In this document: piece by piece, positions 6,510 through 47,322 of the stretch
Numbering within the stretch: position 1 is the stretch's first letter
Layout of the letters: every line of letters starts with the position of its first letter
Origin: a virus
Strand: one strand, 5' to 3'
Virus record (IMG/VR): IMGVR_UViG_3300009124_000002
Location: 1-64,000 of that record
DNA length: 64,000 nt
Notes under the pieces: model-generated
What the model was told of the DNA's origin: nothing
Seen by the model: the letters and a program-made list of their open reading frames with translations, nothing else
Databases searched by the model: none
Made by a program: the position numbers and the translations under genes

Positions 6510-7067
6510 TTACTTTAGGTTATTTATGATTCTGAATCCGACACTAATACGATGAGTCCTTGAATACACCGAATGCCAGAACAAATTGTCTTTCTCGTTA
6601 TTTATATGAAAGTGACGTATGTTCCAGCCGGGAAAGTCCATGTCCACAACAGTCTTCTTGGTCTCTTGGTCATAATACTTGAAGTATGAATCTCCATTTT
6701 GAGAATAGTTTAGGTAGCACCTGAGATATGGAGTATCTGCATTAGTGTGCCATCTCATACCTTCTCCCGGTGGATAGTAGAAGAAACCAGAACGAGATAT
6801 TGAGCATTTTGGAAATCGCCCCATCAACATTTTTGTAATGTAGATTTGATCCTTTATTAAATATGATTCCTCGATATCAAATGGTTGCCCTTTTCCAAAG
6901 TTTTGGTCAACATCAACTCCACTTTCCATTGCCAGTGAAAGTGAATCGTCTGAGGTATAGAATCCTTCTTCTTTCTTGGGGTAGTTAATATCAAGGTCTT
7001 TCCATTCATACAAGAGACGATTTGCCATCTCGTCTAGATATTCATCTTCAAATCTCTGATGAATCAT
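6510..7067 (-). CDS. 2OG-Fe(II) oxygenase-like (DSBH) protein
   Basis: YYPPGEGMRWHTN...FWHSV...RISVGF: spacing of the two His and the Arg fits 2OG oxygenases (HxN instead of HxD). Confidence 0.55.
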   Translation of the reverse strand: MIHQRFEDEYLDEMANRLLYEWKDLDINYPKKEEGFYTSDDSLSLAMESGVDVDQNFGKGQPFDIEESYLIKDQIYITKMLMGRFPKCSISRSGFFYYPPGEGMRWHTNADTPYLRCYLNYSQNGDSYFKYYDQETKKTVVDMDFPGWNIRHFHINNEKDNLFWHSVYSRTHRISVGFRIINNLK

Positions 7068-7498
7068 AGAACCTCCTTATACATTGTTAATGCAGGAGGA
7101 TCGACATGACCAATGTCAACAGGAACTTTTACAGAAGTAAAATCTACGGTCTCTGGTAGGTCTCTAAGCTGCTGCTTGTATTTTTCGATATTATGAAGAC
7201 GTTCTTGATTTGTGATATACCTCAAGCAAGCTTTATCGAGTTCCTCCAGTGCCTCATTTCTTCTATACCTAAGAATATCAAGTGCTTCTTTCCGCACCTT
7301 TGATTCATCATATGATATCTCACCGTCCTCAATATTCATAAATTTCAATTCACCGGAGTCTGGGACATCTTTAGGGGAATCAAATGAAATAGCCTTGCCG
7401 CATCTAAGACAGTCCAAGGCTTGTTGAGATGGATTCTTGAGGTAAATTTCCAGTCTTACATCCTCACCAGATTGATATAGCACATAACCATTTTGCAT
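7064..7498 (-). CDS. tail fibre assembly chaperone-like protein
   Basis: C-terminal LR..RN..L..LD...YKQQLRDLP motif typical of phage tail-fibre assembly chaperones. Confidence 0.6.
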   Translation of the reverse strand: MQNGYVLYQSGEDVRLEIYLKNPSQQALDCLRCGKAISFDSPKDVPDSGELKFMNIEDGEISYDESKVRKEALDILRYRRNEALEELDKACLRYITNQERLHNIEKYKQQLRDLPETVDFTSVKVPVDIGHVDPPALTMYKEVL

Positions 7499-7506
7499 AC
7501 TATGAT

Positions 7507-8955
7507 TTAGTAGACAACAATGCTTACTCTATTCCACGTATTGTCTGGATCAGCTAGAGCAAAAACACTTGTTCGACCACTCGTATACCAAGAGCGGTCC
7601 TTGTTGCCCTGAATTGAAGTAGTCTTCAGGCTTGATATTTCAAAACCACTTGTAGTGTAATTTTGTGTCCAGACTCCAGTCAGTTCATCTCGACAAAATA
7701 TTGTGCTATCTCCATACAGGTCCAATCCCGCATCATCAGAATGGTCTCTGCCAACAGTAAAAATGATGACATGATTATTGTGTTCTCGTTCATTTTCAAA
7801 GTTGATAGTAAGAGTCCCCTCAGAACCAAAGCTGGCAGAACTAATGTTTCTCTTTTTGCTTGGGTCAGCTAGGATAGTCCAGCTATAAGGAGACTCTTCT
7901 ATCCTCTCCATCGTGCAAAGAGCAAATGCAGCTTTTCTGTCAACAAGAAACTTTGTGATGCCATTTGTCTTTCTCCTCCATCTGTCAAAAGAATCTGCCA
8001 AAGTAACACCTGTCTCCTTGAAGTCATCATAAGGAATAAAGTCAGTAATATTTGATACTACCTGATCGGGTTCTGGTGCATTGAGGTTTGGGTCTTCAAC
8101 TTCATTTACAAGGTCTTCATCAATCTGGGGATTGGGGACAAAGAACTCAACCAAGTATCCATATCTTCCATCTCTGGTATTTGTCAGGTCACCATCATCA
8201 TCTGAGTATAGACCCGGTTGACTTCTCTCTGAACCAAGAATTACAGCAAAGTCTTCGCCTTGTCCAGAATTACTAGGTTCATTAAATGATTGTCCTGTTG
8301 AATGAAGGTCACTATTATCTGCCCAATAGATATTATTGACACCATTCTCAAGCGGACTTCCATCAATCCATTTCCATTCACCCTCTTCTTCGGTATCAGT
8401 CAACCCAACCCAGACTGTAGGGTAATCTGCGATGCCTTCTTCAACCTCAAGATAGTCTTGAACAAAATTGAGAGCTCTTCTGCCGGTGCGAAAAACAAAA
8501 GAGAAATTGAATAGTGCATCATATTCATCTTTAGATATCTCTACAACATCAGTTCCGGCATTACTCCAGAATGTATTAATATCGTTTAGTATTCTATTGC
8601 TGAACCTTCTCGATGCACCAATCCCAGCTATTTCCCTTTGGAGACCCTGAGAAGTGGTTGGGTTCAATGTTGCTGCTGCTTGAATAGCACCCGCCCATGC
8701 GTCTGGGAGAAGTGATCTATTGAACAATGCCACTGGAGATTGCAGATTCGATTGAGCTTCTCTATAAAAGAGATATCTGGTTGGTGTTTTAAATTCCTCA
8801 AGAGTAGCAATTGCGGTATTATATTTCTCCTGAGTATTCAGAACAGCAAGACGACCATTGATACCGTTGTGTGTCAAGAGTGCTGCTTCTGCTGAAGCTT
8901 GCTGATAAGTAAGCTTTTGCCCCGGTGTTTCTACTACTTGAAATCGTGCTCCCAT
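7507..8955 (-). CDS. C-type lectin domain fibre/adhesin protein
   Basis: LTYQQA...GRLAVLNT and VWVGLTDTEEEGEWKWIDG...EPSN..EDFA...GYLVEF (CTLD), plus a C-terminal module starting DSFDRWRRKTNGI. Confidence 0.7.
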   Translation of the reverse strand: MGARFQVVETPGQKLTYQQASAEAALLTHNGINGRLAVLNTQEKYNTAIATLEEFKTPTRYLFYREAQSNLQSPVALFNRSLLPDAWAGAIQAAATLNPTTSQGLQREIAGIGASRRFSNRILNDINTFWSNAGTDVVEISKDEYDALFNFSFVFRTGRRALNFVQDYLEVEEGIADYPTVWVGLTDTEEEGEWKWIDGSPLENGVNNIYWADNSDLHSTGQSFNEPSNSGQGEDFAVILGSERSQPGLYSDDDGDLTNTRDGRYGYLVEFFVPNPQIDEDLVNEVEDPNLNAPEPDQVVSNITDFIPYDDFKETGVTLADSFDRWRRKTNGITKFLVDRKAAFALCTMERIEESPYSWTILADPSKKRNISSASFGSEGTLTINFENEREHNNHVIIFTVGRDHSDDAGLDLYGDSTIFCRDELTGVWTQNYTTSGFEISSLKTTSIQGNKDRSWYTSGRTSVFALADPDNTWNRVSIVVY

Positions 8956-37877: not shown

Positions 37878-39140
37878 TCAAGAGATGATTTCCTTGAGAA
37901 CCCTACCATCCTTAATGATTTCAATTGGACGGTTACCAGAGGTCATGAGCCGCTTCTCGGGATTGATACCCATAAGGTGATACAGAGTTGCTCCGTAATC
38001 AGCAGGGGTAACTAGATCTTCCTCTGGTTCGCTGCCAGTCATATCAGGTTTGCCATAGACAAATCCTCTCTTGACTCCACCACCAGCAAGTGCAATTCCA
38101 AAAAGCTTTGCCCAATGGTCACGACCAGCAGTTCGATTAATCTTTGGGGTGCGACCAAATTCAGAAGTCACGACCACCAGAGTTTCATCAAGCATACCCC
38201 GTTCATCAAGGTCGCGAATCAGTGCAGCATATGCTTTATCGAATTCAGGTTGCCATCTTGTGATTCCAGCCTCAATGCCATCGTGCATATCCCAACTCCC
38301 AAAGGTAACAGTGACATACCTTACTCCAGCTTCGACCAGACGACGAGAAAGAAGGAAACGAGAACCAGCAGCACCAGTTCCATAATTCTCTCGGGTCTTT
38401 GAATTCTCTGTCTTGAGGTCGAATGCTGCTCTTGCAGTTTCACTTGAAATCAGGTCATATGCCTGAGAGTAGAACTTGTCAACACCACTCATGACATCTG
38501 CCTTTTCTAGATTTGAAAAGTGATTGTCCACAATCGAGCGCATTGACCTGCGCTTGGCAAATCGATTGGTATCTACACCAGATGGTAGCCCAAGGTCTCT
38601 TACCTGAAAGTCACCAGATTCTGGATTTGAACCAAGCCCAAAGGGACCAAATGCAGTTGAGAGATAACCAGATCCACCATAATCATTTGCCTTGTTCGGA
38701 ATTGCCACATATGGTGGAATGTTGTTTCTTCCACCCAATTCATGTGCAACCACTGAACCAATACTAGGATATATGAGTGCTGGAGATGGGCGATATCCAG
38801 TCATCATGTTGTGCGTTCCTCTTTCATGTGCTGCTTCACCATGAGACATTGATTGAATCACGGTAATCTTGTCAGCAATCTTTGCAGTCTCACTTAGATT
38901 CTGTGAGAGTCTCAATCCAGCGACATTGGTATTCACTACACCCAAGGGACCACGATATTCAAGTGGAGCATCAGGAATTGGAATCCAGCTTTCCTGATGT
39001 GCCATGCCACCAGGAAGGAATATCTGAATCACACTCTTGGCACGAACCTTGAGATTTGACTCTGCTTGTGCCTTGAGAATAGATCCCATTGAGAGACCCA
39101 TCACGGAACCATTAAAAAGAAACGATCTTCTATTCATCAT
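37878..39140 (-). CDS. DUF1501-family protein with Tat signal (start revised to ATG 39140)
   Basis: NRRSFL; AKSVIQIFLPGG.AHQES...SMSH..AAH..G...GY.P...PS.GS...RRLVEAGVR.V...WD.H...DL..RGMLD.TLV...SEFGRTP.IN...GRDHW...AGGG...G..YG. Confidence 0.88.
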   Translation of the reverse strand: MMNRRSFLFNGSVMGLSMGSILKAQAESNLKVRAKSVIQIFLPGGMAHQESWIPIPDAPLEYRGPLGVVNTNVAGLRLSQNLSETAKIADKITVIQSMSHGEAAHERGTHNMMTGYRPSPALIYPSIGSVVAHELGGRNNIPPYVAIPNKANDYGGSGYLSTAFGPFGLGSNPESGDFQVRDLGLPSGVDTNRFAKRRSMRSIVDNHFSNLEKADVMSGVDKFYSQAYDLISSETARAAFDLKTENSKTRENYGTGAAGSRFLLSRRLVEAGVRYVTVTFGSWDMHDGIEAGITRWQPEFDKAYAALIRDLDERGMLDETLVVVTSEFGRTPKINRTAGRDHWAKLFGIALAGGGVKRGFVYGKPDMTGSEPEEDLVTPADYGATLYHLMGINPEKRLMTSGNRPIEIIKDGRVLKEIIS

Positions 39141-39144
39141 AGTA

Positions 39145-40494
39145 TTAGGCGATAATGCCTTTCTGGACTTCTCCATGAACATCAGTCAGACGAAAGTCTC
39201 GACCATTGTAGCGATAAGTGAATTCCTTGAAGTCAAACCCAAGAAGTGTAAGGACTGTGGCATGAAGGTCGTGGACATGGCATGGATTTTCAACTGCCTT
39301 GTATCCAAGTTCATCAGTTGCTCCATATGCAGTCCCACCCTTGACACCACCACCGATCAGGGCAGTGGAGAATCCAGTGTGTTGATGAGCACGACCAAAA
39401 TAACCATTACGACCAGCACCATCACGATGAGGTGTTCTTCCAAATTCACCACCAAGAATGATAAGAGTATCATGGAGCATTCCACGTTGCTTGAGGTCAT
39501 CAATCAATGCAGTCAAGGGACCATCGATACCCTTCGCTCTTACTGTCAATGAAGTAAAGAGATTGTCATGCATATCCCAACCTCCGTTCCATGCCTGTAC
39601 AAAACGAACACCACGTTCAAGAAGTCTCCGGGCGATAAGAAACTGCTTGCCTGTATCTGTGTTTCCATAAGTATCCCTTACTTTCTTTTCTTCCTTACTT
39701 ACATCAAATGCCTCTGTTGCTTCAATTTGCATATTGTATGCAATCTCGTATGACTTGATTCTGTTCTCCAATTCAATATCTTTACCATTCAACTGCGAGT
39801 GCATGGTATTCATCTTAGCAAGGAGATCAAGTTTTCTTCTCTGCTCTTGAAGTGTTCCGCTTGTCTTGATGTTGGCAATCATTTGATTCACATCACGCAA
39901 ACGAGTATCGATTGGAGTTCCCTGATAGAGACCGGGAAGAAAGGCAGACTGCATACTCTCTGTGTATCTCTGAGCACCACCGGGAGCAAGAGAAACAAAA
40001 CCGGGGAGATTATCATTTGCCAAACCAAGACCATAGGATACCCATGAACCAAAGGAAGGGCGAGGTAATGAAATCTGTCCAGTATTGAACATACGAACAC
40101 CAACATCATGGGCAGGAACATCTGTCATCATTGAACGAACTACACAGATATCATCAGCGTGTTTTTGCAATTGAGGAAAGCAAGAAGACATCAAGAGACC
40201 AGACTGACCACAAGGAGTAAACTCAAAATCAGTGGCATGACCAAGACGATTGCCGTTGATCTTTTTGCCATCAAACTTTTCGAGTTCTGGTTTGTAATCC
40301 CACATATCCAGATGTGTTGATGCACCTTGTAGGAAGATGTGTAGAATTCTCTTTGCTTTTCCTTGAGGTGCAACTGCCTGTGCGTTCTCATTGAACATTG
40401 TGCTTGCAGCGATCGCACCAAGACCCATACCTGTTGAACGCAGAAATTCTCTACGGGAGGATGGAAGTGGTTTGATATTAGAGCATGTATTCAT
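39145..40494 (-). CDS. DUF1501-family protein with Tat signal (second subtype)
   Basis: SRREFL; KAKRI.HIFLQGA.THLD.WDYKP...RSM.T....H...RPS.GSW.SYGLG..N.NLPGF...ARRL.ERGVRFVQ...WD.H...GEFGRTP...HDLHAT.L.LLG.D...TYR.NGRD.RLTDV.G. Confidence 0.9.
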   Translation of the reverse strand: MNTCSNIKPLPSSRREFLRSTGMGLGAIAASTMFNENAQAVAPQGKAKRILHIFLQGASTHLDMWDYKPELEKFDGKKINGNRLGHATDFEFTPCGQSGLLMSSCFPQLQKHADDICVVRSMMTDVPAHDVGVRMFNTGQISLPRPSFGSWVSYGLGLANDNLPGFVSLAPGGAQRYTESMQSAFLPGLYQGTPIDTRLRDVNQMIANIKTSGTLQEQRRKLDLLAKMNTMHSQLNGKDIELENRIKSYEIAYNMQIEATEAFDVSKEEKKVRDTYGNTDTGKQFLIARRLLERGVRFVQAWNGGWDMHDNLFTSLTVRAKGIDGPLTALIDDLKQRGMLHDTLIILGGEFGRTPHRDGAGRNGYFGRAHQHTGFSTALIGGGVKGGTAYGATDELGYKAVENPCHVHDLHATVLTLLGFDFKEFTYRYNGRDFRLTDVHGEVQKGIIA

Positions 40495-40495
40495 A

Positions 40496-43120
40496 TTAGT
40501 TAATATACATCGTCTCGTTTGACATCACCATGACATGAATGAATTGTTCAAATGGAGAGTATGTATCTTGTGGGGTTGATTGAATGAACTTGATTGCAAG
40601 CTTGGTTTCCATATCGGTTGGATTCCTTTGCAGGAGCAATTGATAGATTGCTTGTATCTTTCCCGGTTCATCGATTACCTTATCGAATCTGCTTGCGATT
40701 TCTTTTACTTTCACCATCATCATTGAATTATTTAACATGAACAAAGACTGTTGTGGAACGGATGACCGAAATCTCTTTCCTGTTGGGAGGTTTGGATCAG
40801 CCATATCGAAATTGGATAGAATCTCTGGAAGACGACGACGATCAATCTCACCAAAGATAGAACGAGCATTGGGGTATGGTGAATTAAACAGTTTGACTGG
40901 TCCTCCATGTGCCTTTTCAAAATTACCACCATTGGCAAAGAAGAAGAGAGAATCACGAATACCTTCAAACTCAAGGCGTCGAATATTCTGACGGTGCAAG
41001 AAGATGTTACCGGGGTCTTTGAGTTCCATCTTTCCATCTGCCTTACTTGATTGACGATATGTGCGACTTGTGACAATCAGACGATGCAACCTCTTGATGC
41101 TCCAGTTATTCTCCCTCAGATAATTTGAAAGAAATTCTAGTAGTTCTGGATGACTTGGGTCTTCTGCCTGAATCCCAAAGTCATCTGGTGTATCCACAAA
41201 ACCACGACCAAAGTGGTGCATCCAAATTCGATTTACAAAGGAACGTGTGGAGAGTGGATGTTCAATAATTGAATTTGCAAGTTCAAGTCTACCTGAAGTC
41301 TTGTCAGGATACTTTCCTCCATCTGGATCAAGGTATTCAATGAAAGAACGTGGGGCAGAATCACCAAGTTTTCTTGCATTTCCCAAAAGGAAGATACGAG
41401 AAGTCACTGGTCGATTCTCTGTAATCACCATACTACGTGGAGGCGTCACACTGCTTGCCCACTCATGGTCAATGAGTTTGGCGGTAACACGTTGAAGACC
41501 TCTTTGATATTGAGTCCTCTCGCGGTTGTTTAGAATCCTCCAGAAATTCTCAATATCACCAAGGTCACACGGACCTTTATCCTTGAATAGAATCTTATCA
41601 GCCTTCTTTTGAAGAGACGATAATGGCTTCTTATTGATCTTCTTTTCATAAGTTTCGTAGAAGAGTCTACCATACCATGCTGCAACCTGAACAGGAGTCT
41701 CTGCCTTTGCAAGACGAAGACCTCTCAGGATAATCTCATTAACCTTACGAATCTCTTCTTCTGATTTCTTTACTGATTTGCTTACTTTTACTAGTTGGTA
41801 AACTTTCCAGAAATCATCTTTGCTGTTCATTTCACGATTCCAGTTAGACATCATCCTACCAACAAGACCAGTCACCTTATCAACCTTATTAGTTCTGGAA
41901 TACTGCCCCTTGGCTTCATTCGGTACCTCATTGTAATAGTTGTGTGTATGGACGATATACTGAATAGAACCTTTGCGGAAATGGTCATACCATCTTGAAT
42001 ACTCCTTGCGTTTATACACTTGGATATCAGAAGCCAACTTTTTCTTCTTGGTGATATACTCATTAAATCCATTTGAACCAGTTGTGTCTTCTGTCATTGG
42101 AAGCTCAAATTCATTCGGTTCACGCACTGAACGAAAGATTCCATGTAGTGCATAGTAATCCTTCTGACTGATTGGATCGAACTTATGATCATGACACCTC
42201 GCACAAGTAACAGTCAATGAAAGGAATCCCTTGGTGATGACATCGATGCGATCATCAATCACATCATTTGCATTATTGTCACGACGACCAATAGTGATGA
42301 ACCCAAGCCCTCCTGTATCTGGTTTTGGAAGAAGGTCACCAGCAATCTGTTCCTGAATGAATCGATTGTAAGGCTTGTCTTCATGAAAGGAATCAATCAC
42401 ATAATCACGATATGACCATGCATAAACATAACGAGGATCATCACGACGATTATTGGCACCACCCTTGTAATCACTATAGCGAGCAACATCCAGCCAGTGT
42501 CTTGCCCATCTCTCTGCATATGCTCTGGATGAGAGAATCTCGTCTACGATTTTGTAATAGTTCTTTCCACCATTTTCAAATTCAGAAACCTGAAGTGGAG
42601 TAGGTGGTAATCCAGTCATATCAAAGTAGAGACGACGAATCAACTCTCTCTTTGTTGCTTCAGGCGAAAAGAGCGCACCTTGTTTCTTGAGACCATCGGC
42701 AATGAAGTTGTCAATAGGATTCTCCTGTTTGAAATCTGGAACTGTTGGAGTATATGCCTTCTTGAATGCCCAATGTGATTCCACCTCTTTACCCCAACGG
42801 GAACCTGATGCAGTGAAATTGGTGGGAAGCTTGGCACCATTCTTGATCCATGAAGCAAGGATGTTTCGATTTACTTCTCCAAGGTCTCTCTTTGGTGGCA
42901 TATCACCAGAGACAATGGCATTAAGCAGGACGTTGTCTTTGAGTGCTTTCTGAATGCCTTCCTTGGAGTCCAGTAATGTATCACCTTTGACTCTCTTTGC
43001 CTTGGATGAATGACACTCATAGCAGTTATTTGCGATAAGTGGACGAATTGCATTCTCAAAATCATCTGCACCAAAGACGAAACAAGCGGACAAGAATAGT
43101 ATTGATAATACAAGTTTCAT
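40496..43120 (-). CDS. planctomycete cytochrome c (PSCyt1) + DUF1549 + DUF1553 (PSD1) domain protein, two CxxCH haem motifs
   Basis: Signal peptide; IRP....CYECH...MPP; HWAF...NPID.FI...RRLY.D.TGLPP...ERWARHWLDVARY.D; CARCHDHKFDPI.Q.DYY.L; SGRLELA...R..VNRIW.HHFG.G.V.TPDDFG...PSHPELL...WS.K.LHRLIV.S.TYRQSS. Confidence 0.92.
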   Translation of the reverse strand: MKLVLSILFLSACFVFGADDFENAIRPLIANNCYECHSSKAKRVKGDTLLDSKEGIQKALKDNVLLNAIVSGDMPPKRDLGEVNRNILASWIKNGAKLPTNFTASGSRWGKEVESHWAFKKAYTPTVPDFKQENPIDNFIADGLKKQGALFSPEATKRELIRRLYFDMTGLPPTPLQVSEFENGGKNYYKIVDEILSSRAYAERWARHWLDVARYSDYKGGANNRRDDPRYVYAWSYRDYVIDSFHEDKPYNRFIQEQIAGDLLPKPDTGGLGFITIGRRDNNANDVIDDRIDVITKGFLSLTVTCARCHDHKFDPISQKDYYALHGIFRSVREPNEFELPMTEDTTGSNGFNEYITKKKKLASDIQVYKRKEYSRWYDHFRKGSIQYIVHTHNYYNEVPNEAKGQYSRTNKVDKVTGLVGRMMSNWNREMNSKDDFWKVYQLVKVSKSVKKSEEEIRKVNEIILRGLRLAKAETPVQVAAWYGRLFYETYEKKINKKPLSSLQKKADKILFKDKGPCDLGDIENFWRILNNRERTQYQRGLQRVTAKLIDHEWASSVTPPRSMVITENRPVTSRIFLLGNARKLGDSAPRSFIEYLDPDGGKYPDKTSGRLELANSIIEHPLSTRSFVNRIWMHHFGRGFVDTPDDFGIQAEDPSHPELLEFLSNYLRENNWSIKRLHRLIVTSRTYRQSSKADGKMELKDPGNIFLHRQNIRRLEFEGIRDSLFFFANGGNFEKAHGGPVKLFNSPYPNARSIFGEIDRRRLPEILSNFDMADPNLPTGKRFRSSVPQQSLFMLNNSMMMVKVKEIASRFDKVIDEPGKIQAIYQLLLQRNPTDMETKLAIKFIQSTPQDTYSPFEQFIHVMVMSNETMYIN

Positions 43121-43126
43121 ATACTA

Positions 43127-43134
43127 TATTTATA
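43127..43134 (-). promoter_or_regulatory. T4-type late promoter TATAAATA, 6 nt upstream of the PSCyt gene start
   Basis: Exact match in the 19-nt intergenic gap. Confidence 0.75.
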
Positions 43135-43139
43135 AAAGC

Positions 43140-43604
43140 TTATTCTGTGAGTATTCGTCCTATGATTTGTTCTTTGTTGATGAAATAGTAATCGCTTATC
43201 TTACTGTTATCACCAAAGATAAGGTATTGATCGGGTTTCATCTCAAAGGTGAAATTTGTATTCAAGGGGGTGGGATAGTATAAGATATCTATGACTTCTT
43301 TACCATCTACTAGAATTACTGAATTTGAAATTGAAATTGTGGCAGGGTATCGGGCAATGACTCTCTTGATGACACGAACCATATCGCCATCCTCCACTAT
43401 ATCAGCAACAACAATATCACCAACATAGTAGTTGGGGCAATCCTTGCGAATCCATATGGTTTCCCATGACTTCAATGTTGGTTCCATACTCTTCCCAGAT
43501 ACCACAATGAAAGCAAAAAAGTGCTGGGAGAGATACCCCAGCACTGTTGTGATACCCAAGAGGGCAATGAGAAACCAGAATCTTACTCCATGCTTTCTCG
43601 ACAT
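43140..43604 (-). CDS. lepB: signal peptidase I (S26)
   Basis: N-terminal TM; VSGKSMEPTL (catalytic Ser), GDIVV, IKRVIA (catalytic Lys), GDN..ISD, IIGR. Confidence 0.85.
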   Translation of the reverse strand: MSRKHGVRFWFLIALLGITTVLGYLSQHFFAFIVVSGKSMEPTLKSWETIWIRKDCPNYYVGDIVVADIVEDGDMVRVIKRVIARYPATISISNSVILVDGKEVIDILYYPTPLNTNFTFEMKPDQYLIFGDNSKISDYYFINKEQIIGRILTE

Positions 43605-43717
43605 TTTCTTTTGTCCAGTTGACGCCTTGCTTTTTTCGTATTCTTCTTGTATGCCTTCTCCTGACTGCGAGAAGTTGAAAAGGGAAGACCCTTTGATTTT
43701 GCTACTTCATCTTTCAT
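43583..43717 (-). CDS. small basic hypothetical protein
   Basis: 44-aa ORF MKDEVAKSKG... filling the gap. Confidence 0.45.
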   Translation of the reverse strand: MKDEVAKSKGLPFSTSRSQEKAYKKNTKKARRQLDKRKCRESME

Positions 43718-43721
43718 TGTT

Positions 43722-44042
43722 CTATTTATTCTTTCGTATTGTAATGACGATGGTGCCCACGATGGCAATTGAAATTCCCATCTGAGTAGTGATGAGTGCT
43801 TTTGAAATCCCCTTTGCTAGATTATCGATAGATGATGTCCCTCCAACTGAAAGTGCTTGAAATGTCTGCATCATACCCAAGACAGTTCCCAGAAGACCAA
43901 CAAGAGGGACAGAATTGACAACGATATTTGCCATCCAGTGATCACTAGAAAATGCAAGAGCATATGCCCAACATCCCAATAAGGCGATGACGATCATTGT
44001 CCAACCACCCGAGATCCAGTAATCGATTATTGTTTGTATCAT
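43722..44042 (-). CDS. MotA/TolQ/ExbB proton-channel family protein, compact (start revised to ATG 44042)
   Basis: GGWTM..I; PLVGLLGTVLGMMQTF...LAKGISKALITT..G..IAI. Confidence 0.82.
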   Translation of the reverse strand: MIQTIIDYWISGGWTMIVIALLGCWAYALAFSSDHWMANIVVNSVPLVGLLGTVLGMMQTFQALSVGGTSSIDNLAKGISKALITTQMGISIAIVGTIVITIRKNK

Positions 44043-44143
44043 TAAGATGAACAACCGGAGCCAAGAGGACAAACATAAACCGAAGAACCAACGTTCTTCA
44101 ACTCTTTGCCACAGCGATCACATTTTCGTTTTTGTTTTTTCAT
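44042..44143 (-). CDS. tiny Cys-rich zinc-finger-like peptide (MKKQKRKCDRCGKELKNVGSSVYVCPLGSGCSS)
   Basis: ATG 3 nt after the tmRNA CCA; TAATG coupling to the ExbB-like gene; four Cys. Confidence 0.45.
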   Translation of the reverse strand: MKKQKRKCDRCGKELKNVGSSVYVCPLGSGCSS

Positions 44144-44146
44144 AAA

Positions 44147-44563
44147 TGGTGGAGGCGGCGGGAGTCGAACCCGCGTCCAATACTACCTAGTATGCTCTTC
44201 TACACGTTTAGCTCGACTCTCTATACTCCTGATGCATCATCGAGCATCCTCATCAGGAGGTTGAACCAAGTGTCTTAGGTGATGGTGTCTGGTTCCATCC
44301 AGTCATCACAGCAGCCTCTGCTTTAGTAACCGCGAACTCAACGAGGCATTAAGTCCACGATCTGGTTATGCAACCACTTCAGCGACTTCGGCTCCAGCCA
44401 GAACAGCATCAGCATTGTTCATGATGGCAGCAGCTTCGTCAAGAAGACCGGCAATGTTATCTTCGCCATTTAGTTTTTTTAGTCGATTTTTAATGAGACC
44501 ATTCGACCAACTCATACGTGCTTCTTCATTCATCAGCAATACTGTCGAAACCAGTACGCCCCC
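44147..44563 (-). ncRNA. ssrA: tmRNA
   Basis: 5' GGGGGCGTACTGGTTTCGACAG and 3' GGACGCGGGTTCGACTCCCGCCGCCTCCACCA form an Ala-type acceptor stem with G3.U; internal tag ORF at 44467-44366. Confidence 0.92.
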
Positions 44564-44568
44564 GAAAT

Positions 44569-44658
44569 TGGCGGTGAGAGAGGGATTTGAACCCCCGGTT
44601 GCTTTTACACAACTCCTGTTTTCAAGACAGGTGCATTAAACCGCTCTGCCATCTCACC
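44569..44658 (-). tRNA. tRNA-Ser(TGA)
   Basis: Cloverleaf with long variable arm, loop CTTGAAA, GCCA end. Confidence 0.92.
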
Positions 44659-44662
44659 AAAG

Positions 44663-44739
44663 TGGTCGGAAAGACAGGATTTGAACCTGCGACATCCTGC
44701 TCCCAAAGCAGGTGCTCTACCAAACTGAGCTACTCTCCG
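44663..44739 (-). tRNA. tRNA-Pro(TGG)
   Basis: CGGAGAG..., loop TTTGGGA, ACCA end. Confidence 0.92.
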
Positions 44740-44743
44740 AAAA

Positions 44744-44818
44744 TGGCATCCCGTACCAGAATCGAACTGGTGTTCTCGCCGTGAAAGGGCGATGTCCTAA
44801 CCGCTAGACGAACGGGAC
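44744..44818 (-). tRNA. tRNA-Glu(TTC)
   Basis: GTCCCGTTCGTCTAGCGGTTAGGAC..., loop CTTTCAC, GCCA end. Confidence 0.92.
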
Positions 44819-44829
44819 TTAATGTTAAA

Positions 44830-44919
44830 TGGCGGCTGGAAAGAGATTCGAACTCTTGGTACCCTTTCGAGTACGACAGTTTAGCAAACTGTTGCTTTAG
44901 ACCACTCAGCCATCCAACC
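44830..44919 (-). tRNA. tRNA-Ser(GCT)
   Basis: Long variable arm, loop TTGCTAA, GCCA end. Confidence 0.92.
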
Positions 44920-44925
44920 TGAAAT

Positions 44926-45002
44926 TGGTTGGCGCAGTAGGATTTGAACCTACGACCTTTCGATTATCAATCGAATGCTCTAACCAACTGAGCTATGCGC
45001 CA
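44926..45002 (-). tRNA. tRNA-Ile(GAT)
   Basis: Loop TTGATAA, ACCA end. Confidence 0.92.
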
Positions 45003-45009
45003 ATGAAAA

Positions 45010-45085
45010 TGGAGCCAGATGTCAGATTCGAACTGACGACCGACGGTTTACAAAACCGTTGCTCTACCAACTGAGCTAATCTGGC
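45010..45085 (-). tRNA. tRNA-Thr(TGT)
   Basis: GCCAGAT..., loop TTTGTAA, TCCA end. Confidence 0.92.
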
Positions 45086-45087
45086 AT

Positions 45088-45164
45088 TGGTGGACCCTAT
45101 AGGGGTTGAACCTATGACCTACCGATTATGAGTCGGGTGCTCTGACCAACTGAGCTAAGGGTCC
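45088..45164 (-). tRNA. tRNA with CAT anticodon, most likely Ile2 (lysidine-type)
   Basis: GGACCCTTAGCTCAG...CCGA-CTCATAA-TCGG resembles bacterial tRNA-Ile2; isotype is inferred. Confidence 0.8.
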
Positions 45165-45173
45165 ATTAGAAAT

Positions 45174-45249
45174 TGGTGCCCCCACTAGGACTCGAACCTA
45201 GAACCACCTGATTAAAAGTCAGATACTCTACCAATTGAGCTATAAGGGC
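45174..45249 (-). tRNA. tRNA-Lys(TTT)
   Basis: Loop CTTTTAA, ACCA end. Confidence 0.92.
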
Positions 45250-45254
45250 GGAAG

Positions 45255-45330
45255 TGGTAGCAGGAGTGGGATTTGAACCCACGGTCTTCTGGATATGAGC
45301 CAGACGAGATAACCACTTCTCCATCCTGCA
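45255..45330 (-). tRNA. tRNA-Met(CAT), initiator-like
   Basis: T1/T72 mismatch, GGAG/CTC D-stem (purine11-pyrimidine24), loop CTCATAT, ACCA end. Confidence 0.8.
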
Positions 45331-45335
45331 TTAAA

Positions 45336-45407
45336 ATTGAGGGCGGGACTCGAACCCGCAACCTCTTCCGTGACAGGGAAGTACTCTACACTTTGAGTTA
45401 CGTCACT
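45336..45407 (-). pseudogene. degenerate tRNA-Asp(GTC)
   Basis: Intact D, anticodon (CTTCC-CTGTCAC-GGAAG) and T arms, but acceptor AGTGACG/CCTCAAT has two mismatches and no encoded CCA. Confidence 0.7.
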
Positions 45408-45413
45408 AGAAAT

Positions 45414-45861
45414 TGGAGCTGGGTTAACCTATATTGTTTAACGTCGCACCCAGCTAGGTTCGACGAGCATGATGCGTCTTCTTTTCGGCAGACGTCTCCA
45501 CCTACACATAGGACACATTGGTGCACCGCTTGCCGAGCAGTATGACTCTTTCGAGTTTCATCCTTTAGGAATCATCAGATACGCTGTGGCAAAGAAAGTC
45601 GATCCATTTACAACCCCCGTTATTGTTTTGGTTGAAGGTGGACCAGACCTGATCGTTGGGTTATCGTGTAACGCCAACAAAGATTCGGCTTTTTATTTTG
45701 CCCTGTTGACATGGGGTCTCCTCTCTCTAGGGACTTACTGCTGAGCCGTAACAGCTTAAAGTTGGATATCATCACCATTGCCCTTTTGGGTCACCCACGG
45801 ATTCTCGGTGGTCTTCAATACCTTATCGGAGTATCTCCCGGAGAGTAGAACCTCTCTCAAT
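45414..45861 (-). ncRNA. structured non-coding leader RNA(s) of the tRNA operon, ending in TCCA
   Basis: No credible ORF between promoter and first tRNA; many hairpins and pseudoknots; includes a hammerhead. Confidence 0.65.
45530..45592 (-). ncRNA. type I hammerhead ribozyme (predicted cleavage between 45544 and 45543)
   Basis: TTGCCACAGCGTAT-CTGATGA-T-TCC-TAAA-GGA-T-GAAA-CTC-GAAA-GAG-TC-ATACTGCTCGGCAA: full core, three stems, GUC site. Confidence 0.8.
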
Positions 45862-45867
45862 TTTTAT

Positions 45868-45896
45868 ATTCTACATGAAGCCTTTGCTTCAGTCAA
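45868..45896 (-). promoter_or_regulatory. strong sigma70-type promoter TTGACT-17-TAGAAT for the ncRNA/tRNA/tmRNA operon
   Basis: Near-consensus hexamers; the spacer contains the inverted repeat TGAAGC-4-GCTTCA. Confidence 0.78.
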
Positions 45897-45902
45897 CTAT
45901 TC

Positions 45903-46166
45903 TTATTCTCCAAACACTAAAATTTCATCAGTGAAAAGCATCAAGAAGTCATGTAGGTCTCTATATTGTTCTCCTGCATAAACATACTCTTCAATCTTCT
46001 CCTGAAAGCCCAACTCATCATCAAAGACCTTTTTCAAATCATCACGGTCATGTAGTTTCTGCCAGAGTCGATTCATGATTACTGCACGACCATTATTGTC
46101 ATGGATTGGAAGGTCTTCCTTCGTGCGTTCAACCCATCTCTCATTGTGGTTGCTAATGTAAATCAT
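45903..46166 (-). CDS. hypothetical protein
   Basis: Co-oriented ORF, plausible composition. Confidence 0.6.
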   Translation of the reverse strand: MIYISNHNERWVERTKEDLPIHDNNGRAVIMNRLWQKLHDRDDLKKVFDDELGFQEKIEEYVYAGEQYRDLHDFLMLFTDEILVFGE

Positions 46167-46186
46167 AAAGTATCTATAAATTCAGT

Positions 46187-46384
46187 TTATGCCCGACGAA
46201 AAACAATATCTGAGGCTTCCCATAATGGTTGTCGGAGTTCCTCAAACATTTCATGTCGGTCAGCATCATCATGATGGAATCGATCAGCTTGATCTGCCGC
46301 ATAATCAGCAAGTGCAGTGAAGAAGTTTTCAAGGGCTTGACCATTCATCTCGTCCAGCATTTTGTATATTTCAATCTTACTCAT
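46187..46384 (-). CDS. hypothetical acidic protein
   Basis: Coupled ORF after the repeat protein. Confidence 0.6.
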   Translation of the reverse strand: MSKIEIYKMLDEMNGQALENFFTALADYAADQADRFHHDDADRHEMFEELRQPLWEASDIVFRRA

Positions 46385-46386
46385 AA

Positions 46387-47268
46387 TTATGCTTTCTTTA
46401 CGTAAACCACACCATCGATTGTTATTTCATTTGGGAATTGAGACACAGGCTCTTCTGTATCCCCAGAGACCACTGTATCCCCAGAGACCACTGTATCCCC
46501 AGAGACCACTGTATCCCCAGAGACCACTGCGTTCCAAGAGAGCACTGCACCCCCATAGACCTTTGCGTTCCCATAGACCCATGCGTCCCCAGAGACCTTT
46601 GCGAACCCAAAGACCAATGCGTTCCCATAGACCTCAGCGTCCTCATAGACCTCGGCACTTCCAAAGACCTCGGCACTTCCAAAGACCTCGGCGCCCCCAG
46701 AGACCTTTGCGTCCTCATAGACGCATGCAACGCCATAGACCTCAGCGTCCTCATAGACCTCGGCACTTCCAAAGACCTCGGCACTTCCAAAGACCTCGGC
46801 GCCCCCAGAGACCTTTGCGTCCTCATAGACGCATGCAACGCCATAGACCTCAGCGTCCTCATAGACCTCGGCACTTCCAAAGACCTCGGCACTTCCAAAG
46901 ACCTCGGCGCCCCCAGAGACCTTTGCGTCCTCATAGACGCATGCAACGCCATAGACCTCAGCGTTCCCATAGACCTTTGCGTTCCCATAGACCTCAGCGT
47001 CCTCATAGACCTCGGCACTTCCAAAGACCTCGGCGCCCCCAGAGACCTTTGCGTCCTCATAGACCAATGCATCGCCATAGACCTTTGCGTTCCCATAGAC
47101 CCATGCGTTCCCATAGACCCATGCATCACCATCATGACTCAGATTCTCCTCGGACTCGATGTATCCCCCAAGGTCACCTTTCTTTACGTCGCCAAAGTCC
47201 CGCAGGGCTTTGATGCGTCGGAGGTTTGGGTTGTCTGGATGGGCTTCGTTCGTGATTTCGTATTTCAT
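46387..47268 (-). CDS. hexapeptide-repeat (left-handed beta-helix) protein, copy 2 (start revised to ATG 47268)
   Basis: MKYEITNEAHPDNPNLRRIKALRDFGDVKKGDLGGYIESEENL..., then A.V.G. hexapeptides; paralog of 29612-30349. Confidence 0.82.
   Translation of the reverse strand: MKYEITNEAHPDNPNLRRIKALRDFGDVKKGDLGGYIESEENLSHDGDAWVYGNAWVYGNAKVYGDALVYEDAKVSGGAEVFGSAEVYEDAEVYGNAKVYGNAEVYGVACVYEDAKVSGGAEVFGSAEVFGSAEVYEDAEVYGVACVYEDAKVSGGAEVFGSAEVFGSAEVYEDAEVYGVACVYEDAKVSGGAEVFGSAEVFGSAEVYEDAEVYGNALVFGFAKVSGDAWVYGNAKVYGGAVLSWNAVVSGDTVVSGDTVVSGDTVVSGDTEEPVSQFPNEITIDGVVYVKKA
46625..46964. repeat. 108-bp perfect tandem repeat x3 (plus partial) built from 18-bp units
   Basis: Unit starts ccatagacctcagcgt at 46625, 46733, 46841 and 46949. 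Confidence 0.88.
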
Positions 47269-47293
47269 AGTGTTGTTTCTCATTACGTAGATC

Positions 47294-47322
47294 ATACTAG
47301 ACCATTTCTGGATTCCCGTCAA
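47294..47322 (-). promoter_or_regulatory. early promoter TTGACG-17-TAGTAT
   Basis: Hexamers read directly; leader CGTAATGAGAAACAAC shared with the next cassette. Confidence 0.7.

Follow-up and report, generated by a model that had tools for sequence, protein, structure and literature searches.

The leader of a transfer RNA (tRNA) operon in a distant T4-like phage carries a conserved non-coding unit of about 130 nt whose 3' end mimics the acceptor arm of a tRNA. The operon lies on the minus strand of a 64,000-nt stretch of DNA (the window), positions 1 to 64,000 of IMG/VR record IMGVR_UViG_3300009124_000002, and the subject of this study is the 52-nt element at 45465..45414 that closes the unit, one short spacer upstream of the first tRNA gene. 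Judged by its sequence, this is a real, conserved small-RNA unit that has no Rfam family and ends in an acceptor-end mimic, of a kind known from rnaC and rnaD of T4. The favoured reading, drawn by analogy and held with moderate confidence, is that the element forms the 3' domain of a small RNA of about 130 nt, of the same kind as the two T4 RNAs, with a 3' end that would be matured as the ends of tRNAs are.

On the minus strand the element reads CGTCG-AACCTAGCTGGGTG-CGACG-TTAAACAATA-TAGGTT-AA-CCCAGC-TCCA, followed by ATTTCT and then by the tRNA-Asp gene from 45407. Re-reading of the strand matched, letter for letter, the sequence given in an earlier annotation of this DNA (the original prediction). 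Three complementarities were claimed there, and all three exist with perfect Watson-Crick pairing: CGUCG with CGACG (c/c', 45465-45461 with 45446-45442, 5 bp), AACCUA with UAGGUU (a/a', 45460-45455 with 45431-45426, 6 bp) and GCUGGGU with ACCCAGC (b/b', 45454-45448 with 45424-45418, 7 bp). The third had been drawn with 8 bp, which re-uses A45455, a base already paired in a/a'.

Homologs of the unit were found in six contigs of two sequence types, a window type (the window itself, L002, L099, L127 and L061) and a second type represented by L031. Across these contigs the putative eighth pair (45455/45417) is A-U in three, A.G in two and C-G in one, so position 45417 behaves as an unpaired discriminator base. 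The base 5' of CCA is U in three contigs and G in three, and its would-be partner is A in five of the six; therefore, the base is best described as a variable, unpaired, discriminator-like position on a stem of 7 bp, as in tRNA. A covariation of A-U to C-G at the end of an 8-bp stem was considered and dropped, given that L099 and L061 have A opposite G. The CCA is invariant although the bases on both sides of it vary, and the 7-bp stem never varies. The components of a tRNA acceptor end are thus all present, namely a 7-bp stem (GCUGGGU/ACCCAGC), an unpaired U or G, and CCA, and on this comparison the 3' end of the element is an acceptor-arm mimic with one variable unpaired base and an invariant CCA.

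Conservation and boundaries of the 130-nt unit

The other window-type contigs are 99-100% identical to the window over the unit, and L031 (7081-7214) matches window 45540..45408 with 93.3% identity over 134 nt. Between the window and L031, protein-coding segments share 68-89% identity and the common tRNAs 92-98%, which places the unit at a tRNA-like level of conservation. The variants within the element and its spacer are few: A45455, G45447 and A45413 are each C in L031, and U45417 is G in L031, L099 and L061. The surroundings are less constant. L031 lacks both a 138-nt stretch of the window leader (45678..45541) and the transfer-messenger RNA (tmRNA) gene, and it has a different tRNA set and an extra insert of 81 nt. 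Lineages differ in whether they have a hammerhead module, the tmRNA and several of the tRNAs, and the unit of about 130 nt is kept.

Homology with L031 begins at 45540, 3 nt from the cut that is predicted for a candidate hammerhead ribozyme between C45544 and A45543. In L031 the unit is preceded by AUUAUUUCU, which holds the operon's spacer motif AUUUCU. Together, the start of homology near the cut and the spacer motif before the unit in L031 argue that 45543..45414 is one discrete unit, about 130 nt long, that has been conserved. The core bases of the hammerhead are all present, including GAAA and an A-U pair and then C at the cut site. Stem III would have 4 bp capped by a GAAA loop, stem I 4+5 bp around an internal loop, and stem II only 3 bp with a U.U by the core; the unit's conserved 5' end serves as the 3' arm of the candidate. 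The Rfam model Hammerhead_HH9 scores 19.3 bits against a threshold of 52, with an E-value of 0.017 in a 216-nt search only, and is unreported in a 1-kb search. The candidate lies within the 138-nt stretch that has no counterpart in L031, and since L031 keeps the unit, self-cleavage is not the general maker of the 5' end. The original proposal of a hammerhead product of about 130 nt agrees with where the homology starts, and is weakened by the sub-threshold score and by the missing module in L031.

The unit is also punctuated like a gene. Eleven of the 12 units of the operon (the element, nine of the ten tRNAs, and the tmRNA) have a CCA end with a U-rich spacer after it, and the exact spacer AUUUC is found 3' of the element, tRNA-Lys, tRNA-Ile and tRNA-Ser(UGA). 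The element thus shares the punctuation of the operon's genes, as had been claimed from its NCCA end and the spacer of the neighbouring tRNAs. No conserved open reading frame (ORF) of at least 30 aa was found in the unit; a minus-strand AUG frame of 10 codons is shifted by a 1-nt insertion in L031 and is not conserved. A plus-strand ORF at 45469-45744 (91 aa) was rejected as coding, as it has no Pfam family and its region has indels in L031. The unit part of the claim of a discrete small RNA gene is accordingly upheld by homology and spacers: it is conserved and non-coding, with tRNA-type punctuation and an acceptor-like 3' end.

A search of Rfam by covariance models, proposed with the original prediction, was run on 1-kb and 216-nt stretches at gathering score and at E<=10. 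No family was placed on the element or the unit, so that the search marks the element as uncatalogued and gives it no family membership. Among the candidates rejected in this way, with no match at gathering score or E<=10, are pistol, hepatitis delta virus (HDV)-like, the turnip yellow mosaic virus (TYMV) tRNA-like structure, YrlA, C4, GOLLD and ROOL. The unit may be among the 10,006 candidate viral RNAs that one catalogue draws from IMG/VR (PMC10690425).

Related sequences are few. A blastn comparison of the leader (498 nt) with 50,697 phage records gave matches of at most 32 nt, none of them on the element, and when 185,579 species genomes were scanned for patterns, a single chance match and no homolog came up. 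Exact-pattern scans of IMG/VR found two other contigs, the same each time, and three of five matches of a 19-mer were due to chance; a metagenome pattern scan returned 84 matches, of which three are homologs (99% identical) and 81 are chance matches of the A-rich 19-mer. Searches with neighbouring proteins found 22 loci for a 311-aa repeat protein, 12 for a ClpP-like protease and one for an 87-aa ORF. Among these loci the RNA region is reached only by L007 and L031, because most contigs end inside or just after the gene for the 311-aa repeat protein. That protein is a beta-solenoid, encoded at window 46387-47322 on the minus strand.

The closest parallel is with the T4 rnaC and rnaD RNAs (species 1 and 2), which are non-tRNA units of 120-140 nt that abut tRNAs in a T4-type tRNA operon; rnaD ends in GCACCA and rnaC has a T-arm (CCGGGUUCGAAUCCCGG). 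The unit likewise lies in a T4-type tRNA operon and has a tRNA-like end. It differs in that it stands at the head of the operon rather than the end, has no T-arm, and in one lineage has a hammerhead candidate on its 5' side; its 12-bp stack (see below), if real, would be made by a pseudoknot. No homology to rnaC or rnaD was found, with a best blastn E-value of 2.5 against T4 69500-73500. In this distant T4-like phage from an aquatic setting, an unrelated sequence fills the same niche as the T4 RNAs with the same tRNA-end mimicry, which suggests that such RNAs are recurrent, and therefore useful, in phage tRNA operons and are not a T4 oddity. No biological role has yet been given to RNAC and RNAD of T4 (PMC3014915).

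Pairing and maturation of the 3' element

Among the three distinct sequences of the element, all five pairs of c/c' and all seven of b/b' are invariant, and a/a' has five invariant pairs and one that is broken. Covariation in homologs, a check named in the original prediction, is not seen in any of the three helices: 17 of the 18 pairs are invariant and one is broken, in a comparison of two sequence types only. The variants neither prove nor disprove the helices; the substitutions avoid them. The only compensatory change in the unit falls in its 5' hairpin (45502..45487), where A-U becomes C-G in L031.

With the strand order c-a-b-c'-a'-b', each helix crosses both others. The linkers are 0 nt between c and a and between a and b, 1 nt between b and c', 10 nt between c' and a', and 1 nt between a' and b'. 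Given that AACCUA has no linker at either end, a simultaneous fold of the three helices would be sterically strained, and all three at once are unlikely as a static fold. Any two of the three helices would make an ordinary H-type pseudoknot, and the attractive pair is c/c' with b/b', a plausible but putative fold. Its loop 1 would be AACCUA (6 nt), its junction 1 nt, and its loop 3 17 nt, starting with UUAAACAAUA. Stacking of c/c' on b/b' would give 5+7 = 12 bp and then N-CCA, the size of an acceptor/T-arm minihelix of tRNA. The element is like the minihelix and the model pseudoknot substrates of RNase P in its 7-bp stem, N and CCA, and in the 12 bp reached with c/c'; it differs in being a natural sequence, in its crossing loop of 17 nt, and in having A or C at N-1.

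The same pairing recalls the TYMV-type tRNA-like structure (RF00233), which has the order hairpin 5' strand, loop segment, hairpin 3' strand, linker, 3' segment, NCCA. The original comparison with the pseudoknotted acceptors of viral tRNA-like structures holds in that GCUGGG/CCCAGC and the 5-bp hairpin give this strand order, and is not supported for both loop pairings together. The 12 pairs are invariant, with no covariation, and CGUCG has a nested alternative partner. Unlike the TYMV type, the element has no anticodon-like or D-like domains, and it belongs to a DNA-phage transcript rather than the 3' end of a genome. The RF00233 model does not match the element; its sole match, at 45327-45401, is on tRNA-Asp, with 21.4 bits against a threshold of 40. 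The occurrence of either U or G as discriminator in near-identical phages argues, as far as the sequences go, against one fixed aminoacylation identity. Features of the tRNA-like domain of tmRNA are not found in the element, in which the third pair is U-A rather than G3:U70 and a T-arm is lacking; the tmRNA of the window begins GGGGGCG and ends CGCCUCCACCA, with G opposite U at the third pair.

Should the 12-bp pseudoknot be real, the design of a pseudoknotted acceptor arm would extend to bacteriophages, and the element would be a compact natural pseudoknot substrate for RNase P. The design is not known to us outside plant-virus RNA genomes. A literature search on phage tRNA clusters, aimed at tRNA-like RNAs of pseudoknotted or minihelix form, turned up no account of an element like this one.

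In the favoured reading, the host tRNA machinery would free and finish the 3' end. An endonuclease would cut in the U-rich spacer, exonuclease trimming would halt at the helix and CCA, and CCA repair would follow. The product would be a small stable RNA like T4 rnaC and rnaD, protected by its helix-plus-CCA end. CGUCG/CGACG probably stacks on the 7-bp stem via the H-type pseudoknot, and the resulting 12-bp stack may be a substrate for RNase P, cut at A45455|G45454; AACCUA/UAGGUU would then be an alternative or later conformer, outside the same static fold. The hammerhead, if active, would make the 5' end in the window lineage, and a different nuclease would do so where the hammerhead is missing. 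H-type pseudoknots with an RCCA end are cut in loop 1 by bacterial RNase P, which also cuts the TYMV tRNA-like structure; structures of the TYMV type are thus among its substrates (PMC12710915). No antisense target or paralog of the element longer than 12 nt was found in the 119-kb genome, and Pfam searches of 46 window ORFs and 50 other ORFs of the record, which is 66% complete, found no RNA ligase, RtcB, Pnkp or CCA-adding enzyme. Given neither a pairing target nor a tRNA-end enzyme, a function in trans is suggested by analogy only.

Several observations weigh against this reading. The N-1 base is A or C, whereas RNase P prefers U at this position (PMC12710915). RNAalifold pairs CGUCG with an upstream UCGGC (45536-45532) that closes a long 5' domain, a nested competitor of the pseudoknot. 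The nested and knotted forms are presumably about equally stable, by a hand sum of nearest-neighbour stacking energies. To these are added the lack of covariation in the helices and the small size of the family, with six contigs in two types only. The 119-kb genome holds, on both strands, 16 perfect 7-bp stems with a loop of 12-45 nt and NCCA, against 7.4 +/- 2.6 in 50 shuffles, and 4.4% of 50,000 shuffles produce a helix of 5 bp or more that abuts the stem. The folding energy of 62 nt has a z of -1.65, with 14 of 200 shuffles folding as well, and that of 207 nt a z of -0.12. Finally, the whole case for a small RNA is built from sequence. With the hairpin taken as given, two additional perfect helices (5+6 bp) that join the 20-nt flank to the 23-nt loop turn up in 0.56% of 20,000 shuffles. 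The element is not clearly beyond chance by structure alone, and the comparative argument is the stronger one; its above-chance status rests on position, punctuation and conservation, not on folding energy.

Competing explanations

The rival that survives best, itself unlikely, is that the element is a cis-acting leader or processing module, which guides or insulates cleavage of the precursor (by RNase P, RNase E, or as an exonuclease entry or stop) and is degraded once excised. Such a role would fit the place of the element between the promoter and the first tRNA, its operon spacer syntax, the ability of RNase P to cut RCCA-ended pseudoknots (PMC12710915), and the lack of an antisense target above 12 nt in the 119-kb genome. 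However, every tRNA has its own processing signals, and all 130 nt, loops included, are kept at the level of tRNAs while neighbouring leader modules are swapped. The first downstream tRNA also varies between contigs, whereas the unit is constant.

A decayed tRNA gene is less probable again. Under this explanation the acceptor stem and CCA were kept, the interior was rearranged, and the other complementarities are leftovers of a T-arm. There is some likeness to T-arms, in that UCGAACCUAG (45463-45454) is complementary to a T-arm segment of the operon's tRNA-Lys over 10 nt and UAGGUU is similar to the 5' half of a T-stem, and the tRNA genes of this locus do recombine and decay (the GGGGAUG genes of L002, L099 and L127, and the tRNA-Asp of the window, described below). 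Yet 45465..45414 draws no ARAGORN call and no match to the tRNA model (RF00005) at gathering score or E<=10, the 216-nt search included, and so gives no cloverleaf; T-loop and D-loop motifs are absent from the element. Identity of 93%, including the loops, across lineages with protein genes at 68-89% would be unexpected for a dead remnant, and the unit reaches about 90 nt upstream, into the covarying hairpin.

The boldest proposal, a long shot, is that the element is a DNA-phage counterpart of the tRNA-like structures of plant viruses. The 12-bp pseudoknot would mimic an acceptor/T-arm and would be cut by host RNase P at A45455|G45454, leaving a three-way junction in two pieces. The cut would remove the steric conflict, so that c/c', a/a' and b/b' could all form: the freed tail ...CGUCGAACCUA would re-pair with the 23-nt loop (c/c' and a/a'), with the CCA end live. 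This would explain why three mutually crossing complementarities are retained. The two-piece RNA may then act as a decoy or substrate for enzymes that work at the 3' end of tRNAs, for example the CCA-adding enzyme, synthetases, or acceptor-directed toxins of host defence.

That all three helices form together in one RNA (ABCABC) ending in CCA, as the original prediction had it, is improbable. The complementarities are perfect, two extra helices are as rare in shuffles as given above, c/c' and b/b' are invariant, and five of the six a/a' pairs are kept in L031. Against this, AACCUA would be tethered at both ends by the short linkers already listed (0 nt for c-a and a-b, 1 nt for b-c' and a'-b'), the terminal a/a' pair is lost in L031, and covariation is lacking; the double pseudoknot, with both loop pairings formed together, was therefore not borne out.

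Chance complementarity in a conserved spacer is very improbable. In its favour, the folding z is unremarkable, a stem with NCCA is frequent in the genome, and the element was noticed after the fact; against it stand the position, the invariant CCA between variable bases, the tRNA-level conservation, and the extra helices (p = 0.0056).

A self-cleaving ribozyme with a pistol-like or HDV-like pseudoknot that releases the first tRNA is scarcely credible: the layout recalls pistol in having a 5-bp hairpin whose loop pairs downstream and, after the hairpin, an A-rich UUAAA linker, and a hammerhead candidate lies 80 nt upstream, but the element matches no ribozyme model at E<=10 in the 216-nt and 1-kb searches, be it pistol (RF02679), HDV-like, hatchet, twister or another, there is no sequence before the CCA for P2/P3 of pistol, no room for a catalytic-site junction, and only 1-2 nt between a' and b' where P4 of an HDV-like fold would sit, and the CCA and spacer indicate processing of the tRNA type.

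Leader, operon and genome context

Features of the element, the unit and the leader, in window coordinates
Feature	Position	Strand	Basis or remark
c: CGUCG, 5' strand of 5-bp hairpin	45461..45465	-	5/5 pairs invariant; alternative partner UCGGC 45536-45532
a: AACCUA, complementary to UAGGUU	45455..45460	-	last base C in L031, one pair broken
b: GCUGGGU, 5' strand of acceptor-like stem	45448..45454	-	7/7 pairs invariant
single G between b and c'	45447	-	C in L031
c': CGACG	45442..45446	-	one base 3' of b
A-rich linker UUAAACAAUA	45432..45441	-	invariant in 6/6 contigs
a': UAGGUU	45426..45431	-	sequence
single A between a' and b'	45425	-	sequence
b': ACCCAGC, 3' strand of acceptor-like stem	45418..45424	-	sequence, stem search
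discriminator-like base U45417 and CCA 45416-45414	45414..45417	-	base U in 3/6 and G in 3/6 contigs; CCA invariant
spacer AUUUCU (CUUUCU in L031)	45408..45413	-	usual post-CCA punctuation of the operon
sigma-70-like promoter TTGACT-17-TAGAAT	45868..45896	-	10/12 matches, best site in 44000-46400; right after stop of 87-aa ORF
leader module A, conserved non-coding	45752..45842	-	84% identity to L031 6826-6916; no Rfam match, E<=10
leader module B, conserved non-coding	45679..45765	-	91% identity to L031 6991-7076; no Rfam match
candidate type I hammerhead	45522..45594	-	CUGAUGA 45578-45572, GAAAC 45559-45555, GUC 45546-45544
non-coding RNA unit, about 130 nt	45414..45543	-	predicted hammerhead cut (about the start of L031 homology) to CCA
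hairpin GGUGGA-GACG-UCUGCC, 5' domain of unit	45487..45502	-	closing pair A-U, C-G in L031

The window is part of a 119-kb virus record that is estimated to be 66% complete. Pfam scans of the record found the T4 core genes gp32, gp59, gp6, gp19, gp5, baseplate, gp23, gp20, gp18 and gp17, as well as gp15, RegA, gp43, gp44/62 and UvsX/Y/W. The closest isolates are cyanomyoviruses, with 49% identity in gp32, and by its gene content the source phage is a distant T4-like myovirus.

On the minus strand the order is the 87-aa ORF (46166..45903), the promoter, about 450 nt without a credible ORF, ten tRNAs (45407..44569), and the tmRNA (44563..44147). The predicted promoter is probably the start of the leader/tRNA/tmRNA transcript. 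The unit is the last non-tRNA module in the leader before the tRNAs. Modules A and B of the leader each have a variable internal hairpin and a GUGAUGA box. The modularity of the leader makes it a small natural experiment in operon building, in which the hammerhead, an 81-nt segment with a 12-bp stem and ACCA, the tmRNA, and single tRNAs come and go as cassettes that end in CCA and a spacer.

The 81-nt segment is the insert of L031, at 6913-6993, and has a perfect 12-bp stem, A, CCA and AUUUCC, with an interior of 53 nt and a duplication of GCUG on its flanks. It folds with a z of -3.76, and one of 200 shuffles folds as well. An exact-pattern scan of IMG/VR found it in no other contig. The insert looks like a separate unit of the minihelix type, and its stem and ACCA indicate that operons of this type make use of units in which a 12-bp stem is joined to CCA, an independent hint in favour of the 12-bp pseudoknot.

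The tRNA genes show changes of their own. The tRNA-Asp of the window (45335-45407, minus strand) has two mismatches in the acceptor stem, no CCA, and a score of 52.5 bits, and its copy in L031 is intact with CCA; the window gene may be decaying. In L002 (2058-2135), L099 and L127 the gene 3' of the element begins GGGGAUG, like tRNA-Asp of L031. In L002 it continues as tRNA-Met(CAU), with mismatched acceptor strands and no ARAGORN call, which from its sequence looks like a deletion by recombination between tRNA genes. The tRNA cluster of L031 has four long spacers of 94-126 nt (7292-7385, 7543-7668, 7990-8088 and 8492-8607). A weak match to the tRNA model, with 24.1 bits and below threshold, is found at L031 8003-8072, and ribozyme models, including the hammerhead, gave no match at E<=1 in the long spacers.

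The tmRNA of the window (44563..44147, minus strand) scores 120.6 bits, and the tag predicted for it, 33 aa with AEVVA at the end, is unusually long. At the matching place in L031 the next shared gene comes straight after a tRNA-Ser gene. Beyond the tmRNA, the minus strand of the window at 37878-44072 holds genes of a cellular type: two DUF1501 genes, an 874-aa DUF1549/DUF1553 protein (PSCyt2/PSD1), an S26/S24-type peptidase and a MotA/ExbB-like protein. Planctomycetes and Verrucomicrobia are the groups for which these families are typical, which may be a hint to the host. Elsewhere in the genome (82037-85020), DNA hypermodification is suggested by genes in L133 18037-19991 and L134 7-1020 for a Tet/JBP-type dioxygenase, an amino acid:DNA transferase (ADDT) and a P-loop nucleotide kinase.

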